A DNA stretch of 64,000 bases from Xylanibacter ruminicola (lineage in GTDB: Bacteria > Bacteroidota > Bacteroidia > Bacteroidales > Bacteroidaceae). Below, one piece after another: positions 9,159 through 57,858 of this stretch. The DNA lies in NCBI GenBank assembly GCA_015060625.1, contig SUYC01000005.1:41270-105269 (forward strand), written 5' to 3'. Below the pieces are notes generated by a model that was given only the letters and a program-made list of their open reading frames with translations, did no database searches and had not been told where the DNA came from. Position 1 is the first letter of the stretch. The number at the start of each line of letters is the position of its first letter. A program made the translations under genes and the position numbers.

Positions 9159-10994
9159 TTATTTGTTTTCAGCATCAATAGCCTTAATCTTCTCGCGAAT
9201 CAGGTTCATATCGTCCTTCAACTTCTGCACCTTGCGGTTCATCTCGTCAATCAGACTGTTACCCTTCTTCGAGCTGGCATTCAGGAATCCGAGGTTGTTC
9301 TCGTAGGTCTGAATCTCCGACTTCAGGTTCTCGTACTGGCGGAACAGGCGTGTGCGCTCGTTGTCGAGGGCATTCTCGCCACGCTCAGCCACGCTCTTCA
9401 GGTTCTGCTTAAAGTTGTTCAGCTTGCGCTTAGCCACGCTGATGTTCAAATCCTTATACAGCTTGTCGAGCACTGCGTGATACTCCTTGTAGAGCTTGTC
9501 CTTCTCTTTATAAGGTACATGACCTACGGTGTTGTATTCATCTACCAGCTTCTGTACCTTTTCGGCCACCTCATCACCAGTCTCTGTAGCCAAAGCCTTC
9601 AGCTGCTCGATGATACCCTGCTTCTTCTCCAGGTTCTCGCGCTCCTCACCACGTGCACCAGCACCTGCGGCATTGCGGGCCTCGAAGAAGGTGTTGCAGG
9701 CTGTCAGGAACTCCTCCCACAGCTGGTCGCCCAACTTCTTAGGCACCATACCAATGGTTTTCCATTCCTTCTGCAGGGCAATGAACTTGTCGCTGGTAGA
9801 TTTCCAGTCGGTTGATGCCTGCAGTTCCTTGGCCTTCTCAATCAGGGCACGTTTCTTCTCGGCGTTCTCCTTGAAGGTTTCTTTCAGTCCCTTGAAGTAG
9901 GCGGCCTTACGACCAAAGAAATCGTCGCAGGCAGCGCGGAAACGCTCAAATATCTTCACGTTCATCTTCTGAGGTGCAAAACCGATGGTTTTCCACTCAG
10001 TCTGAATATCGATAATCTGCTTGGTATGCTTCTCCCAGTCGCCACTGCCCTTGTTTTCCTCGGCAGCAATAGCCTCTACCTTCTCGCAGAGAACGGTCTT
10101 ACGGGCCAGGTTTTCTTCCTCCTTGGCACGCACACCCTCAAAGTGCTGCTGGTGGCGCTTGTTGATAACGCTCGATGCAGCCTTGAAGCGGTTCCAGATT
10201 TCCTCGCGCTGCTCCTTGGCTACAGGACCGATTTCGCGATACTCCTGATGCAGCTTCTGCAACTGGTGGAAAGCGCTGATCACATCCTCCTCGTCGGCCA
10301 GCTTCTCGGCAGCCTCGCAGAGGGCGGTCTTCAGCTCCAGGTTCTTCTTAAAGTCATACTCGCGTGCTTCGCTGTTCAGGCGCAGCATATCGTAGAACTG
10401 CTCTACGTACAGCTGATAGTTGCGCCACAATTCGTTGGCCTTATCAGCTGGCACATTCTTAATTTCGCGCCACTGCTCCTGCAGGCTCTTGAACTCCTTG
10501 TAGTTCTTGTTAGCCTCGTCGGGGGTGGTTACCATAGCCTTGATACGGTCGATGATAGCCAGTTTCTTGGTCAGGTTCTCCTGCTTTTCAGCCTCCTGCT
10601 CCTTGAAAATCTTGGCGCGCTTTTCTTTGATGATGCCCATCTCAGCCTTGAAAGCCTCTTCCTGTTCATCGGGCGTGTACTGGTACTGCTCCGGATCGCC
10701 ACCGGCATCGAGATAAGCCTTGAGTTTTGCCTCACGCTCGGCCACATGCAGTTTGTAGAACGACGATTTCAGATACTCAATCTCGTCCTTCTGTGGAACT
10801 TCCTCGCTATGTGCAATGTCCTGCAAGCGGTGCAGCACATCGGCTTTGGTCTCGTAAACCACACGTGTCAGCTCCTCGGCCTGCTCAGCTGCTGGCTCTG
10901 AGTTTTCAGTTGTTTCTACTTGAGAGGTAACCTCTTCGTTAACTACTTCTTCGTTTTTACCCAGTTCGAGGGTCTTCTCTTGAGAGTCCATCAT
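9159..10994 (-). CDS. DUF349 repeat-containing protein
   Basis: Repeated units such as LQEQWREIKNVP...ELWRNY, LHQEYREIGPVAKEQREEIWNRFKAA and WKTIGFAPQKMNVKIFERFRAACDDFF. Confidence 0.9.
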   Translation of the reverse strand: MMDSQEKTLELGKNEEVVNEEVTSQVETTENSEPAAEQAEELTRVVYETKADVLHRLQDIAHSEEVPQKDEIEYLKSSFYKLHVAEREAKLKAYLDAGGDPEQYQYTPDEQEEAFKAEMGIIKEKRAKIFKEQEAEKQENLTKKLAIIDRIKAMVTTPDEANKNYKEFKSLQEQWREIKNVPADKANELWRNYQLYVEQFYDMLRLNSEAREYDFKKNLELKTALCEAAEKLADEEDVISAFHQLQKLHQEYREIGPVAKEQREEIWNRFKAASSVINKRHQQHFEGVRAKEEENLARKTVLCEKVEAIAAEENKGSGDWEKHTKQIIDIQTEWKTIGFAPQKMNVKIFERFRAACDDFFGRKAAYFKGLKETFKENAEKKRALIEKAKELQASTDWKSTSDKFIALQKEWKTIGMVPKKLGDQLWEEFLTACNTFFEARNAAGAGARGEERENLEKKQGIIEQLKALATETGDEVAEKVQKLVDEYNTVGHVPYKEKDKLYKEYHAVLDKLYKDLNISVAKRKLNNFKQNLKSVAERGENALDNERTRLFRQYENLKSEIQTYENNLGFLNASSKKGNSLIDEMNRKVQKLKDDMNLIREKIKAIDAENK

Positions 10995-11108
10995 TTAACT
11001 ATTAAATTATTACTAAATGATGCTTAGCATCATCAACATTTGGGGTCAAAATTAAACATTATTATTTAATTAACCTAATTTTTTTGCGTTTTTTTGCGTT
11101 TTTGAGGC

Positions 11109-12035
11109 CTAAACTAGTCGTTTATGACGGAAAATGCCCCATGCAATAGCCGAAATGGCGACAGAAATGATGACAGCCAAGATAAATCCCCATGGTTTGG
11201 ATTCCATGCCGTTGATGAGGTTCATACCGAACATCGACGTCACCAGCGTCGGTATCATCATCAGGATGGTTACCGTTGTCAGTGTACGCATCACGGTGTT
11301 CATGTTGTTATTGATAATACTTTGATAAGTGTCCATGGTTGACTCGAGAATGTTCGAGTAAATCATGGTGGTTTCGCGGGCCTGTGTCATCTCGATGGTA
11401 ACGTCCTCAATCAGGTCGGCATCCAATTCGTCAATCTGCAGTTTGAACTTCAGTTTCGACAACAGGGTTTCGTTGCCACGGATAGAAGTCTGGAAGTAAG
11501 TGAGCGAGTCTTGCAGTCGGCTCAGACCAATCAGACTCTCGTTGTTCACCTCCTTGTCCAGGTTGCGTTTGGCCTTATCAATCAGCATCGAAATCTGCTT
11601 CAGGCGCTTCAGGTACCAAACAGCACTCGAAAGGAACAAGCGGAAAATCATATCCACATGGTCGGTAAAGCCTTCGCCACGTTTCTGCTGGAAACTCACG
11701 AAATCTATCATCATGTTTGTTTCGTAAAAACAAACGGTAATCGTCACATCACGTTTATGGATGATACCCAAGGGCACGGTGGTATATGGCGTGCGTGAAC
11801 GTATCTCCTTGACGTAGGGGATACGCAGAATAATCAGCATCCAACCGTCGTCGTACTCATAACGAGCACGCTCATCGGTATCGCTGATGTCCGACATGAA
11901 ATAGTCGGGAATATTAAACTTCTCTTCGAGTTCGCGCTGGTCTTCTTCGGTGGGGCATGTCACCTGTATCCAGCAATTGGGCTGCCAGTCATTGATCTGG
12001 TTCAGTCCGCCTTGGGTATTCCAGAATGTCTTCAT
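11109..12035 (-). CDS. corA: CorA-family magnesium transporter, start MKTFWN at 12035
   Basis: Signature GMN in TSMFGMNL, two C-terminal TMs, and DTDERARYEYDDGW. Confidence 0.93.
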   Translation of the reverse strand: MKTFWNTQGGLNQINDWQPNCWIQVTCPTEEDQRELEEKFNIPDYFMSDISDTDERARYEYDDGWMLIILRIPYVKEIRSRTPYTTVPLGIIHKRDVTITVCFYETNMMIDFVSFQQKRGEGFTDHVDMIFRLFLSSAVWYLKRLKQISMLIDKAKRNLDKEVNNESLIGLSRLQDSLTYFQTSIRGNETLLSKLKFKLQIDELDADLIEDVTIEMTQARETTMIYSNILESTMDTYQSIINNNMNTVMRTLTTVTILMMIPTLVTSMFGMNLINGMESKPWGFILAVIISVAISAIAWGIFRHKRLV

Positions 12036-12053
12036 TTTGCTAATCCTCACATT

Positions 12054-12088
12054 TAATTGACAATTGGTAATTGACAATTGATAATTGT
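12054..12088. repeat. Five tandem heptamers (C/T)AATTG(A/G/T) in the corA leader
   Basis: TAATTGA CAATTGG TAATTGA CAATTGA TAATTGT. Confidence 0.85.
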
Positions 12089-12132
12089 TCTAGCGGCAAG
12101 AGGATTAGCGGTCTTGCCTGCCACCCTCCAGC

Positions 12133-12168
12133 CTAACAGTTGTAACTATTCGCCGGGTAATCGTCCAT
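12133..12168 (-). CDS. Candidate 11-aa leader peptide MDDYPANSYNC upstream of corA
   Basis: ATG preceded by an AT-rich region (AACAACAAAAAT). It sits between the corA promoter (TACCTTTG at 12200-12207, TTTG at 12227-12230) and competing hairpins. Confidence 0.5.
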   Translation of the reverse strand: MDDYPANSYNC

Positions 12169-12237
12169 ATTTTTGTTGTTTAATTAATAATATCGGGTGC
12201 AAAGGTAAAAAGAAAAATTGAAAAAACAAATTTTTAA

Positions 12238-12315
12238 GGCACGAATTACGCGAATTACACGAAAGTTTTCGATTGTGCATAAAAATAATCCGTGTTAATT
12301 CGTGTAATCCGTGCC
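12238..12315. repeat. Imperfect palindromic element with arms built of ~9-nt CACGAATTA/CACGGATTA units
   Basis: GGCACGAATTACGCGAATTACACGA ... TCCGTGTTAATTCGTGTAATCCGTGCC, just downstream of the pepD stop. Confidence 0.75.
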
Positions 12316-12321
12316 AAAAAA

Positions 12322-13779
12322 CTACTTCTCAGGAATAACCTCGAGTGTGTGCTTCAGCAGCGTCCAGAATGGCTCTACGGTTGCTATCAGTGCACGCTCG
12401 GTAGTGGTGTGAGGCGACTTCATCGTTGGTCCGAAGCTCACTACATCCAGGTGTGGATACTTGCCCAGGATGATAGAGCACTCCAAACCGGCATGGTCAA
12501 CCTGGATAATACCGTCCTGACCAAACAGCGCCTTATACTCTTTGCAGAGCAGGTTCAGAATCTCGCTATCGGGGTTGGGATCCCAGCCGCCGTAGCTGCC
12601 AGCAGTCTCCACCTTCATACCTGCCATGTTAAAGCAGCTCTCCAAGGTTTTTACAATATAGTCCTTCATATCCTCACGACTTGAACGAGCCAGAATCTTC
12701 AGCGAAGCCTTACCCTCGCCAATGTTGATGATGGCCAGGTTGCTTGATGTCTCCACCACGTTAGGATAGCTGGGAATCATGCGGATCACACCATCGTGAC
12801 AGCCGTAGATGGCATTAATCAGGTTGTCCTGAATCTCTACAGGCACCTCCATCTTTGGCGTCTCCACTTCCTCGCAGAGCACCTCGATACCGCTCTCGAT
12901 ACCTTTGTACTCATCCTGGAAATCGTCCTGCCAGTCGGCAGCCAACTCCTGCAGGGCAGCTACATTCTCTTTGGGCAATGTGAGCACGGCCTCGGCCTTG
13001 AATGGGATGGCATTACGCATGTTGCCACCCTGCCAACTGGCCAGACGAGCCTCGCACTCTTCGATGGCCTCGCGAACGATACGAACCAGCAGCTTGTTGG
13101 CATTACCGCGACCCTCGTGAATCTCCAGGCCAGAGTGTCCGCCACGCAAGCCCTTGACAGTTACCTTTACAGCAGCATCGTCGGCTTCGGTCTCTACCTC
13201 TTTATAGTCCAGAGTGGCAGTTACGTCGATACCACCAGCGCTACCAATCACAAACTTTCCCCAGCACTCAGAGTCGAGGTTCAGCAGAATATCGCCATTC
13301 AGCTCGCCAGCAGGCAGAGCGTTGGCACCAAACATACCTGTCTCCTCGTCGGCAGTAATCAGCGCCTCGATAGGACCATGCTTCAAGGTCTTATCCTCCA
13401 TCACAGCCATGATGGCTGCTACGCCTAAGCCGTTGTCGGCACCCAGGGTAGTGCCCTTAGCCTTTACCCACTCACCATCAATCCATGGCTCAATAGGGTC
13501 GGTCTCAAAGTTATGAGTGCTCTCAGGTGTCTTCTGTGGTACCATATCCATGTGTGCCTGCAGAATCACGCCCTTTTTCTTCTCCATACCAGGCGAAGCG
13601 GGCTTGCGCATCACAATATTATCTGCAGGGTCCTTAAAGGCCTCTACACCTGCCTGCTTGGCAAAATCAAGCAGAAACTGTTGTACTTTCTCCAAATGTC
13701 CAGAAGGACGTGGAACCTGTGTCAATGCATAGAAATTCTTCCAAATGCACTCAGGGTTCAGATTCTTAATTTCACTCAT
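12322..13779 (-). CDS. pepD: Aminoacyl-histidine dipeptidase (M20)
   Basis: LQAHMDMVPQK, TTLGADNGLG, TADEETGM, LLNLDSE, GGHSGLEIH, HAGLEC, SFGPT...PHTTTE. Confidence 0.95.
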   Translation of the reverse strand: MSEIKNLNPECIWKNFYALTQVPRPSGHLEKVQQFLLDFAKQAGVEAFKDPADNIVMRKPASPGMEKKKGVILQAHMDMVPQKTPESTHNFETDPIEPWIDGEWVKAKGTTLGADNGLGVAAIMAVMEDKTLKHGPIEALITADEETGMFGANALPAGELNGDILLNLDSECWGKFVIGSAGGIDVTATLDYKEVETEADDAAVKVTVKGLRGGHSGLEIHEGRGNANKLLVRIVREAIEECEARLASWQGGNMRNAIPFKAEAVLTLPKENVAALQELAADWQDDFQDEYKGIESGIEVLCEEVETPKMEVPVEIQDNLINAIYGCHDGVIRMIPSYPNVVETSSNLAIINIGEGKASLKILARSSREDMKDYIVKTLESCFNMAGMKVETAGSYGGWDPNPDSEILNLLCKEYKALFGQDGIIQVDHAGLECSIILGKYPHLDVVSFGPTMKSPHTTTERALIATVEPFWTLLKHTLEVIPEK

Positions 13780-14827
13780 AGTTTTTTTGTTTATTTGGGT
13801 TAAAACGTTTCGTAAACATCAAGGCAGCCCAGGCATAGATTCCTAATGCAATCACCAGCATGGTCTGCACAGTATGAACAATCAGCACAAACCAGAGGGC
13901 ATGCTCATCAGCCACACCATAGAGAATCAGCATGGTCTTGATGGCAAAATGCCAGGGCCCGGCACCATTAGGCGTAGGCACGATAACGGCAAAGTTAGCC
14001 ACTACAAACGATACCAATGCGCAGCCGATACCTAAGTCCTTAGTAAAGTCGAAGCAGAAGAAGGTGAGGTAGTAATGCAGAAAATACATCACCCAGATGC
14101 CAATCGAGAAAAACAGATAAAGTGGCAGGTTGTGCACCCCCTTGAGCGAGAGCACACCTTCCCAGATGCCACCTAACGTCATCTTTACCTTATTATATAT
14201 AGAGAAGTTTTTCAGCAACAGATGCAGCAGTATCAGTACAGCCACTGCACAGATGGCTGTCACCACCCAACCCATTACCGAGAAACCACCTAATATTCTG
14301 TCGAGCGATGTACCTGTCTTGCGGAAGAAGGTGCCAAACACGCTTATCTCAACCAGCAGGATAATACCCGAATAGATCATCACTATCAGCGTATCCACAG
14401 CACGTTCTGTAACCACTGTTCCCAGTGCTTTCGAGAATGATATGCCGTCGTAGCGCTTCAGGATGGCGCATCGCGAAAACTCGCCGATACGAGGTATCAC
14501 CAAACTGGCCGCATAGCTGATGAATACTGCATGTATGCAGGTACTGGCCCTATTAATTGCAGGTGCTTCATCCTTCCTCCTTTCTCCTTCCTCCTTCCTC
14601 GTAAGAATCGGCTCCAGTGTCTGTTTCCATCGCCAACCGCGAAACATCTGTGCCAGGATTCCAAAGGGAAACGATAGCAACATCCAAGTCCAGTTCATTT
14701 CTTCGGTCAGCACACGACTGATAGTCGAAAAGTCTTCACCACGATACATCCACCACAAAATGGCACCGCCAAGTATAAAAGGCAGTACCACTTTAGCAAC
14801 GCTACTGATGATGTTTTTTAATTCCAT
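13772..14827 (-). CDS. Lysylphosphatidylglycerol-synthase TM / flippase-like domain protein (UPF0104)
   Basis: FRGWRWKQTLEP, SYAASLVIPRIGEFSRC, GTVVTERAVD, VPTPNGAGPWH, multiple TMs. Confidence 0.85.
   Translation of the reverse strand: MELKNIISSVAKVVLPFILGGAILWWMYRGEDFSTISRVLTEEMNWTWMLLSFPFGILAQMFRGWRWKQTLEPILTRKEEGERRKDEAPAINRASTCIHAVFISYAASLVIPRIGEFSRCAILKRYDGISFSKALGTVVTERAVDTLIVMIYSGIILLVEISVFGTFFRKTGTSLDRILGGFSVMGWVVTAICAVAVLILLHLLLKNFSIYNKVKMTLGGIWEGVLSLKGVHNLPLYLFFSIGIWVMYFLHYYLTFFCFDFTKDLGIGCALVSFVVANFAVIVPTPNGAGPWHFAIKTMLILYGVADEHALWFVLIVHTVQTMLVIALGIYAWAALMFTKRFNPNKQKNYE
14566..14600. repeat. Five tandem CTTCCTC-type heptamers inside the flippase-like CDS
   Basis: CTTCATC CTTCCTC CTTTCTC CTTCCTC CTTCCTC, read on the minus strand as RKEEGERRKDE. 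Confidence 0.85.
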
Positions 14828-15321: not shown

Positions 15322-16143
15322 AAACAAGTTCGACCCAAGAAAAATCTCGGTCAGCACTTTCTGACCGACCTGAATATCGCCAAGCGTATTGCCGATACCG
15401 TAGATGCCTGTCCCGACATTCCTGTACTGGAGGTTGGTCCTGGCATGGGTGTGATGACTCAATATCTCGTAGAGAAGCCCCGTCCCTTCAAGGTCGTCGA
15501 AATCGACCGCGAGAGTGTAGCCTATCTGCAGGAACATTTCCCTGAATTTACGAGTCCCCTTCCTCCTTCCTCCCTTCTCCTTCCTCGAGAAATCATCTCT
15601 GCTGATTTCTTGAAGATGGATCTTCGTGAGGTGTTTGATGGTCAGCAGTTTGTGCTCACCGGCAACTATCCTTACGATATCTCATCGCAGATTTTCTTCA
15701 AGATGCTCGACAATAAGGATCTGATTCCCTGTTGCACCGGTATGATTCAGCACGAGGTGGCAGTTCGCATGGCCTCACAGCCCGGCAACAAACAGTATGG
15801 CGTCTTGTCGGTGCTTATTCAGGCTTGGTATAATGTGGAGTATCTCTTCACTGTCGAGCCAGGCGTGTTCAATCCGCCTCCCAAGGTACAGAGTGCTGTT
15901 ATCCGCATGACGCGTAACGAGGTGACCAATCTGGGTTGCGACGAACAGTTGTTCCGTCGCGTGGTAAAAACCACTTTCAACCAGCGTCGCAAGATGCTGC
16001 GTGTTTCTCTTCGTCAGATTTTCGATGCCAATCATCCTGCCCCCGCAGGCTTCTTCGACGATGAGATAATGACCCGCCGCCCCGAGCAGCTCTCCATCCC
16101 CCAGTTCATCGAACTCACCAACAAAGTCGCATCAGCATTATAA
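15319..16143 (+). CDS. rsmA: 16S rRNA (A1518/A1519) dimethyltransferase KsgA/RsmA
   Basis: KKNLGQHFL, VLEVGPGMG, VVEIDR, GNYPYDISS, FNPPPKVQSAV, FNQRRKML. Confidence 0.97.
   Translation: MKQVRPKKNLGQHFLTDLNIAKRIADTVDACPDIPVLEVGPGMGVMTQYLVEKPRPFKVVEIDRESVAYLQEHFPEFTSPLPPSSLLLPREIISADFLKMDLREVFDGQQFVLTGNYPYDISSQIFFKMLDNKDLIPCCTGMIQHEVAVRMASQPGNKQYGVLSVLIQAWYNVEYLFTVEPGVFNPPPKVQSAVIRMTRNEVTNLGCDEQLFRRVVKTTFNQRRKMLRVSLRQIFDANHPAPAGFFDDEIMTRRPEQLSIPQFIELTNKVASAL
15559..15586. repeat. Four tandem CTTCCTC-type heptamers inside rsmA
   Basis: CTTCCTC CTTCCTC CCTTCTC CTTCCTC, translated within SPLPPSSLLLPRE. Confidence 0.85.
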
Positions 16144-53127: not shown

Positions 53128-56238
<3,111 letters not shown>

Positions 56239-57823: not shown

Positions 57824-57858
57824 TAATTCTCAATTATCAATTGTCAATTGTCAATTAT
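57824..57858. repeat. Five tandem CAATT(G/A)T-type heptamers within the rpsP promoter
   Basis: TAATTCT CAATTAT CAATTGT CAATTGT CAATTAT, ending 6 nt before TAACTTTG (57865-57872). Confidence 0.85.

Follow-up and report, generated by a model that had tools for sequence, protein, structure and literature searches.

The corA locus and its leader

The window analysed here, a stretch of 64,000 nt on contig SUYC01000005.1 of Xylanibacter ruminicola, holds a gene for a CorA-type magnesium transporter whose 157-nt leader contains an upstream open reading frame (uORF) and a set of RNA segments that can pair with one another in alternative ways (Table 1; the features are read on the minus strand, and "3:4" and the like denote the pairing of two numbered segments). 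An earlier sequence-only reading of the window had described this leader as a candidate attenuator that hides or exposes the start of corA, and the promoter, uORF, hairpin, tandem repeat and complementarity to the corA start region that it had listed are all found at the positions it gave. We report here how the uORF and the pairings have fared in evolution and what kind of regulation they might serve.

The corA transcript probably starts a few nucleotides past the -7 box of a predicted Bacteroidetes-type promoter, some 25 nt ahead of the uORF. An A/U-rich stretch of ca. 25 nt lies between promoter and uORF, which starts 31 nt past the TAnnTTTG box and 133 nt ahead of the corA ATG. Among the 77 Prevotella/Xylanibacter loci described below, a TAnnTTTG box starts 36-41 nt 5' of the uORF ATG in nearly all.

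Table 1. Features of the corA leader and the genes that bound it, with positions in the window
Feature	Position	Strand	Remarks
Peptidase M20 gene	12322-13779		Bounds the intergenic region opposite corA
-33-like TTTG of a predicted Bacteroidetes-type promoter	12227-12230	minus	Read from the sequence; 19 nt 5' of the -7 box
-7 box TACCTTTG (TAnnTTTG)	12200-12207	minus	Putative promoter element, by the known Bacteroides consensus
Leader ORF (uORF)	12133-12168	minus	11 codons plus stop, MDDYPANSYNC; ATG at 12168, TAG at 12135-12133
Conserved codons 1-7 (MDDYPAN)	12148-12168	minus	Proposed pause or arrest site, by peptide conservation
Segment 1 (CCGGC, codons 5-6)	12152-12156	minus	Potential partner of segment 2 (GCUGG) in helix P1
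Small hairpin P2 within the uORF (AAUAGU/ACUGUU)	12135-12150	minus	-2.8 kcal/mol
Segment 2, GGCUGGAGGGU (DNA GGCTGGAGGGT)	12123-12133	minus	Candidate anti-sequestering strand; its first base is the last base of the uORF stop codon
Hairpin P3, 5' arm GGCAAGA	12112-12118	minus	7-bp stem with UCUUGCC; 10-nt loop CCGCTAATCC
Segment 3	12095-12109	minus	GCUAAUCC(UC), 12109-12100, pairs with the corA start region
Part of segment 3, AUCCUCUUGCC (DNA ATCCTCTTGCC)	12105-12095	minus	Partner of segment 2
Hairpin P3, 3' arm UCUUGCC (DNA TCTTGCC)	12101-12095	minus	Within segment 3
Spacer of CAATTGT/CAATTAC heptamers	12054-12087	minus	Tandem repeat of period 7/14; linker
Segment 4, GAGGAUUAGC	12039-12048	minus	Sequestered by segment 3; ends 3 nt before the corA start codon
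corA	11109-12035	minus	308 aa, GMN motif; Pfam CorA E = 3e-45; relatives annotated as magnesium transporter; start ATG 12035-12033

Conservation of the leader ORF

By sequence comparison, the leader ORF is conserved across Bacteroidales and possibly beyond them, as one metagenome-assembled genome (MAG) with the ORF is labelled Marinilabiliales. An initial homologue search retrieved only proteins at least 95% identical to the window CorA, and more distant ones were reached via the representative of its cluster at 50% identity, itself 69% identical to the window CorA, and by a DNA pattern scan. Close relatives were sampled by a protein-based scan with one genome per species, which gave 80 CorA loci of 85-99% identity from rumen and gut Prevotella/Xylanibacter, and the uORF is present in all 77 of these that have sufficient upstream DNA. 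It is 11 codons long in all but three loci, which have an in-frame 3-nt insertion (MIDDYPA...), 13 codons and 18 codons, respectively. MDDYPA is constant among these relatives with a His at residue 5 of L062 as the sole exception, and the five residues after it vary. The 69%-identical CorA family, from MAGs labelled Bacteroidaceae and Alloprevotella, carries the uORF in eight of eight loci with 10-14 codons starting with MDDYHA. It is likewise present in seven of seven loci of the most distant family (ca. 35% identity), among them the one labelled Marinilabiliales, where it has 10-16 codons, lies ca. 90-96 nt before corA and starts with MDDYHA, MDDYHR, MDDYHP or MDDYYP. The uORF thus occurs in every readable CorA locus reached via the protein (91 loci). 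The sequence-only reading had staked its proposal on conservation of the uORF, and these three sets bear it out.

This last family was sampled via the CorA protein since the pattern used on metagenome contigs, ATGGACGAYTAYCMSGCG, fixes codons 2 and 6. That scan gave 120 matches, of which 84 are a short ORF followed by a CorA gene within 260 nt, with CorA identities from 97% down to 33% and the most distant of these proteins at 33-38%. The others comprise four short ORFs cut off by the end of a contig, 27 matches that fall by chance within long genes and five matches without a directly downstream CorA. One contig with a Prevotella-type corA (L067, 86% identical) and a complete Prevotella-type leader is labelled Vescimonas coprocola, a Firmicute, and is probably mis-binned.

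The 95 distinct peptides share an invariant M-D-D-Y, followed by P or H (once Y; P in half of them) at position 5, by A in 90 of them at position 6 and by E, D or N in 84 of them at position 7 (E or D in 74/94). Beyond the first six to seven residues the sequence varies freely, and length ranges from 10 to 19 codons.

Codons 1-4 show only synonymous variation at the protein-found loci, with codon 2 being GAC in 90/90, codon 3 GAT or GAC (70:20) and codon 4 TAC or TAT (75:15), which together with the frame-preserving 3-nt insertion argues for selection on the peptide. Codons 5 and 6 are under an additional constraint at the nucleotide level because Pro5 is encoded by CCG in 75/75 loci and Ala6 by GCG in 86/86, the rarest Pro and Ala codons in the genome (14% and 11%, respectively), and none of 53 four-fold degenerate sites of corA in the same loci is as conserved as the third positions of these two codons. 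This constraint could reflect slow decoding or RNA pairing in helix P1.

Pairing of the corA start region

The stretch directly before the corA start has a perfect 10-nt complement within the leader, as GCTAATCCTC (RNA GCUAAUCCUC; 12109-12100) matches GAGGATTAGC (12048-12039). Among 200,000 shuffles of the leader, 211 (ca. 0.1%) contained a perfect complement of at least 10 nt to its last 16 nt. The folding energy of the whole leader does not differ from that of shuffled sequences (z = -0.93), so that single-sequence stability gives no evidence.

Close relatives keep the hairpin, the GCUAAUCC loop and GGAUUAGC before the ATG, with variation in the stretch between them. We aligned 46 diverse Prevotella-type leaders anchored on their motifs, since the distance from GGATTAGC to the ATG varies, and found 99.5% of cells paired in 3:4, which was also the sole consensus helix found by RNAalifold. 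Two of its pairs have undergone double changes, UA to CG twice at one and AU to both UA and GC at the other, and G-U intermediates are present as well. Other lineages build 3:4 from different pairs altogether, including GCUAAUCUCCAU:GUGGAGAUUAGC, GCUAUUCCUCC:GGAGGAAUAGC, GGUUUCUCU:GGAGAAACC, AUACCUCC:GGAGGUAU, UUGCCAAGCCUC:GAGGCUUUGCAA and others.

Across 38 representative leaders whose 18-nt start regions differ at seven or more positions, duplexes of leader body and start region have a mean energy of -14.0 kcal/mol in cognate and -9.95 kcal/mol in non-cognate combinations, and 0/10,000 permutations reached the observed mean. If complementarity were a remnant of an ancestor and had since drifted neutrally, cognate partners would have no advantage, so that 3:4 has to be understood as the product of compensatory evolution. 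The helix ends 0-10 nt (median ca. 2) before the ATG in these leaders. Conservation of the anti-start pairing, the other point of this kind named in the sequence-only reading, is thus found both as near-complete pairing with compensatory changes among Prevotella-type leaders and as a pairing kept with varied sequences in distant lineages.

We note that the segment before the corA AUG often resembles a Shine-Dalgarno (SD) sequence, with GGAG or GAGG within 18 nt in 30 of the 38 representative leaders compared to 4 of 45 long ORFs of the window; L101, L126, L201, L211 and L212 are examples, and segment 3 is correspondingly CCUCC-like. Bacteroidota mostly initiate translation without SD pairing. 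An SD-like segment 4 is therefore odd for this SD-poor phylum, and the switch might have to do with ribosomes whose anti-SD is exposed.

Competing pairings

The sequence-only reading had taken hairpin P3 and the anti-start pairing to be mutually exclusive, which does not hold up. P3 and 3:4 overlap by only 2 nt in the window, and the conserved 8 bp (GCUAAUCC:GGAUUAGC) lie entirely in the loop of P3, so that the two are not exclusive in general. Both could form together in an H-type pseudoknot, in which the first loop would have 2 nt, the second would be missing and the linker would measure ca. 14 nt or more, as far as the spacing of these elements can tell. The true competitor, overlooked earlier, is segment 2 directly at and after the uORF stop codon (12133-12123), which in turn might pair with codons 5-6 (CCGGC).

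Segments 2 and 3 pair in the window over 11 positions with a single U-U (GGCUGGAGGGU with AUCCUCUUGCC), and a G-rich variant of the same pairing joins GGCGGGGGAU to AUCCCUUUGCC. The alignment has 86.8% of cells paired in 2:3, with a central pair that is AU in 22, GC in 18 and GU in 6 sequences and never unpaired, and 84.5% of cells paired in P3, with double-sided changes at five of its seven pairs. When a fixed stretch of nt 28-56 from the leader AUG was tested against the downstream body, the mean duplex energy was -18.9 kcal/mol for cognate and -12.6 kcal/mol for non-cognate combinations (0/10,000 permutations). All three pairings, 3:4, 2:3 and P3, covary. In segment 3, the one column that holds U or C behind AUCC covaries with two alternative partners, of which one is in P3 and one in segment 2 (column pairs 48-84 and 73-84), which indicates that both alternative pairings are under selection, and 2:3 excludes P3 as well as 3:4 because it shares bases with both. 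A chance origin of the pairings is ruled out by the shuffles and by the permutation tests of cognate duplexes for 3:4 and 2:3.

The spacer between P3 and segment 4, whose heptamers the sequence-only reading had listed along with the other features, is not a conserved part of the leader. In relatives, the distance from the hairpin to segment 4 ranges from ca. 14 nt to over 100 nt, and the heptamers of different lineages are unrelated (CAATTGT, ATGCATT, CGCACCT, GGTCAAT and others) or missing; this hypervariability in length and sequence marks the spacer as a linker or filler and not a functional part. Tandem repeats of period 7 are frequent in the genome and found in the window also at 80-110, 14566-14600, 15558-15586, 55346-55378 and 57825-57858. 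The last of these is a recurrence of the CAATTGT-type array of the corA leader, and contigs from RNA libraries break at this array, which shows it to be a dispersed repeat.

Position of segment 2 and energies of the alternative states

Counted from the leader AUG, the first paired base of segment 2 is nt 36-38 in 99 of 158 unique leaders, and 143 of them have it within nt 32-40. The uORF stop wanders from nt 31 to nt 58 while segment 2 stays put, inside the ORF where the stop has been lost or lies further downstream. A ribosome unwinds mRNA ca. 11-13 nt downstream of the first P-site base. Given this reach and the position of segment 2, a ribosome with its P site at up to about codon 7 would leave segment 2 free, and each step beyond would begin to melt 2:3. 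The conserved heptapeptide is, by this geometry, the part of the ORF that a ribosome would be able to translate without touching the switch.

In the window, helix P1 (CCGGC:GCUGG) contributes -6.9 kcal/mol, and the unconstrained minimum-energy fold combines P1, P2 and P3. The evaluated states have energies of -26.3 kcal/mol for P1+P2+3:4, -21.3 kcal/mol for P1+P2+P3, -17.0 kcal/mol for P2+2:3, -14.2 kcal/mol for 2:3 alone and -14.3 kcal/mol for 3:4 alone. The closed state P1+P2+3:4 is therefore favoured over P2+2:3 without a ribosome, while 2:3 and 3:4 become isoenergetic once segment 1 is covered, with 2:3 being local and transcribed first.

P1 is present in leaders of the MDDYPA type, and a subtype with GGCGUG forms a helix of 10 bp; in this large subgroup the change of CCG to CAC (P to H) is accompanied by a change of GCYGG to GCGUG, which yields the 10-bp P1. 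Other lineages have no P1 or a mismatched one. P1 thus has partial comparative support, being real in the window and some lineages and not a general feature of the family. We do not count P2 as a conserved helix, because the small hairpins of relatives at this place form in differing registers.

Downstream genes and a putative link to Mg2+

All 89 readable downstream operons hold a gene for a putative divalent-cation transporter, which is CorA in 84 cases, CorA after rsmA in three and an MgtE_N/CBS protein (with Nramp) in two; none of them holds a resistance or amino-acid biosynthesis gene. In the rsmA group (L120, uORF at 1976, minus strand; L161, 2820, plus; L196, 2928, minus), the leader ORF reads MDDYHA[DN]NATSTCQ..., extends to 32-43 codons and overlaps the start of rsmA/ksgA (16S rRNA dimethyltransferase), the ATG of which is at nt 23 of the leader ORF. 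Directly after rsmA lies a second type of CorA gene (316 aa, Pfam CorA 8e-54). Control must work differently in these leaders; the rsmA start may be occluded directly, or coupling may be involved.

The remaining two (L097, uORF at 1897, plus strand; L205, 5135, plus) encode MDDYPAGILI or MDDYPANIF, followed by a start-sequestering hairpin GGUCACUUCCUCC...GGAGGUGACU-AUG. Downstream in L097 are genes for a 425-aa PRC-barrel/MgtE_N/CBS protein and for an Nramp-family protein with GSVDNDAGG replacing the usual DPGN, which may be an Nramp-related Mg2+ transporter. The L205 contig stops ca. 60 nt into the gene, with first residues matching the L097 protein. Finding the same leader ORF ahead of two other putative Mg2+-transport operons provides independent support for a link to Mg2+.

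The peptides themselves also fit such a link. Three to four D, E or P are found among residues 2-8 in 85 of the 95 distinct peptides, with D2 and D3 constant, and the MDDY peptides thus have the cluster of D/E/P directly after the initiator Met that characterizes intrinsic ribosome destabilization (IRD).

A proposed attenuation mechanism

We consider it rather probable, if far from certain, that the leader regulates the Mg2+ channel gene corA in cis, as a translation attenuator of the ermC/cat type. A short ORF lies upstream on the same transcript, a pairing sequesters the corA initiation region, and a competing 2:3 pairing has its first strand just past the reach of a ribosome on codons 1-7. 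The idea of a Bacteroidales uORF attenuator that hides or exposes the corA start, already put forward in the sequence-only reading, thereby gains support, as uORF and pairing are conserved and the pairing covaries.

Without a ribosome, or after a ribosome has run to the stop codon, segment 2 would be paired with segment 1 or covered. With segment 2 unavailable, segment 3 would pair with segment 4, in a plain duplex or in a pseudoknot that involves the hairpin loop, and the corA start would be closed. A ribosome dwelling on the first seven codons (MDDY[P/H]A[E/D/N]) would instead mask segment 1 and halt short of segment 2, which would then capture segment 3 and leave the corA start open. We infer that the ORF is translated, that ribosomes pause on it in dependence on Mg2+ and that low Mg2+ is the activating condition: the dwell would depend on cytoplasmic Mg2+ since an acidic, Pro-containing N-terminal chain should be hard to elongate for Mg2+-starved ribosomes, as for MgtL, so that low Mg2+ would slow or arrest the ribosome on MDDY[P/H]A, let 2:3 form and allow corA to be translated.

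Several points weigh against this interpretation. The 1:2 helix is found in part of the family only, with mismatches at several positions, and swapping the types of segment 1 improves the energy of the H type on average, so the ribosome-free state may differ between lineages. In RNAfold partition functions, the start site is unpaired with a probability of 0.45 in the free leader, which rises to 0.50 when an early ribosome is masked in and falls to 0.41 when the ribosome is placed at the stop. This shift in accessibility with the ribosome masks is significant but small; the inability of RNAfold to model the hairpin-loop pseudoknot may partly explain this. The fixed rare CCG and GCG codons may reflect RNA pairing instead of decoding speed. 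Drop-off of the ribosome instead of arrest would free segment 1 again, and the logic would then hinge on co-transcriptional timing. Mg2+ is suggested as the signal by gene association, and CorA-family proteins can transport other cations. Finally, the RNA data are assembled contigs, in which the leader is present in RNA libraries and contigs break at dispersed repeats.

A more specific proposal takes MDDY[P/H]A as a Bacteroidia-specific nascent-peptide Mg2+ sensor that would have arisen independently of MgtL, would have a small regulon of corA, rsmA-corA and MgtE_N/CBS-Nramp, would act purely on translation initiation and would have the first strand of its switch at the leading edge of the ribosome. 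The switch would thereby report how hard it is for ribosomes at low Mg2+ to extend the acidic chain of seven residues. We see this as a serious possibility that falls somewhat short of being probable.

Relation to known systems

Among known systems, the enterobacterial corA leader with its ORF corL comes closest; it was not named in the sequence-only reading. Translation of corL is inversely coupled to corA expression in Salmonella (PMC5314796) and E. coli (PMC11552253), and the E. coli corA leader senses intracellular Mg2+ (PMC5314796; PMC11552253). Like the leader described here, those of Salmonella enterica and E. coli carry a short ORF ahead of corA and can adopt either of two RNA conformations that exclude each other, but their output is Rho-dependent termination, whereas the regulated strand here is a translation-initiation region, and in a different phylum.

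N-terminal sequences rich in D/E and P abort elongation within about the first six residues, an effect that is stronger at low Mg2+ and by which MgtL switches on mgtA (bioRxiv 10.1101/2021.02.02.429294). MgtL (MEPDPT...) and the peptides found here share an acidic, Pro-containing motif right after the initiator Met and a leader ORF ahead of an Mg2+ transporter gene. They differ in sequence (EPDP versus DDY[P/H]A) and in output, since MgtL acts via Rho termination and our model needs a dwelling ribosome, not drop-off. We found no homology to the mgtL, mgtP or corL leaders by Rfam, and MDDY[P/H]A differs from MEPDPT of MgtL; corL was compared by description only.

Architecturally, the leader recalls the attenuators of ermC, ermB, cat and cmlA, in which four segments are arranged such that 1:2 and 3:4 hide the start and early arrest permits 2:3, with very short and conserved arrest peptides. 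Those, however, control antibiotic-induced resistance genes through a sequestered SD in SD-dependent hosts, unlike the cation transporter genes considered here. The M-box (ykoK) is similar in being a cis-regulatory leader of Mg2+ transporters from several families (CorA, MgtE and Nramp-related), yet it has no leader peptide and consists of a large, conserved RNA that itself binds metal. In sum of these comparisons, the corA leader of the window resembles corL/corA and MgtL/mgtA in function and erm/cat in architecture and is neither a member of the enterobacterial family nor an M-box.

Alternative explanations

A leader-peptide attenuator built as described might also sense a signal other than Mg2+, be it translation stress in general, an antibiotic that acts on ribosomes or the availability of Asp, Tyr, His or Pro. 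The erm and cat leaders, which antibiotics induce, typically encode arrest peptides that are short and N-terminal, and the presence of rsmA, a ribosome-maturation gene, among the downstream genes would fit. Nevertheless, we hold this to be unlikely in view of the consistent association with putative divalent-cation transporter genes and the complete lack of resistance or amino-acid biosynthesis genes in the 89 readable downstream operons.

It is improbable that the leader acts primarily on transcription, by alternative folds that would control access to a Rho loading site or make a terminator, with occlusion of the start codon as a secondary effect. Segment 4 always abuts the start codon at the short distances given above, which points to initiation; the spacer shrinks to ca. 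14 nt and has no conserved sequence, and the leader contains no terminator-like hairpin with a U-run. What speaks for such a mechanism is that the only characterized corA leaders, those of Salmonella and E. coli, act via Rho and a leader ORF, and that many lineages have C-rich, G-poor spacers resembling Rho loading sites (CGCACCT and CGTACCT repeats).

Still less probable, and in our view very improbable, is direct binding of Mg2+ or another ligand by the RNA as a riboswitch, with the ORF being incidental or a folding aid. Mg2+ stabilizes pseudoknots and long helices, other phyla have M-box riboswitches in control of CorA, MgtE and Nramp-related transporters, and codons 5-6 show stronger nucleotide conservation than is usual for synonymous sites. 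The part conserved across the family, however, is a peptide and not an RNA core, as downstream sequences are wholly different and keep the pairing logic; codons 1-4 vary only synonymously and the insertion preserves the frame. Searches with Rfam gave nothing at threshold for the window leader (best match 21 bits versus a gathering score of 58) and nothing at the gathering score for nine related loci, and this includes the M-box, which had no match up to E 10 on the window leader and none at the gathering score at these nine loci.

A free micropeptide acting in trans, for instance on CorA, with unrelated RNA pairings, is hardly credible even though enterobacterial Mg2+ transporters have small regulatory peptides (MgtR and MgtS), because only the first 6-7 residues are conserved with the remainder varying over lengths of 10 to 19 residues, and because segment 2 keeps its distance from the start of the ORF, which connects the ORF with the RNA switch.

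Possible significance

Bacteroidota dominate gut and rumen communities, and to our knowledge few cis-regulatory mechanisms have been described for them. Full-text literature searches for the peptide and for regulation by a Bacteroides corA leader or uORF returned no description, which is weak evidence of absence. To the best of our knowledge and within the literature searched, the attenuator proposed here would be the first widely conserved one with a leader peptide described for this phylum. If it works as we suggest, Mg2+ sensing based on how the ribosome copes with an acidic N-terminal nascent chain would have evolved at least twice, as a case of convergence. The element is modular, spans ca. 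170 nt and is present in the cultivated Xylanibacter ruminicola strains D31d, Ga6B6 and KHT3 and in Prevotella sp. MA2016, P6B1, ne3005 and khp7. It might be used as a compact, ligand-free expression switch for Bacteroidia and as an annotation marker for Mg2+ transporters, including candidate Nramp-related ones.

Neighbouring genes and repeats

Downstream of corA, the window carries a gene for a DUF349 protein (9159-10994, minus strand), and the order corA-DUF349 is also found in the 69%-identical CorA family (L083-L088). A tandem repeat of 2.5 copies of TTTTTTTGCG at 11079-11103 lies directly past the corA stop (11109) and ahead of the DUF349 gene. On the other side of the leader, just past the peptidase M20 gene, 12232-12321 holds a 26-nt imperfect inverted repeat built of 9-mer repeats (CACGAATTA / TAATCCGTG), which is probably the terminator of that gene. 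It matches several further contigs of the same organism in RNA libraries and is thus a dispersed repeat.

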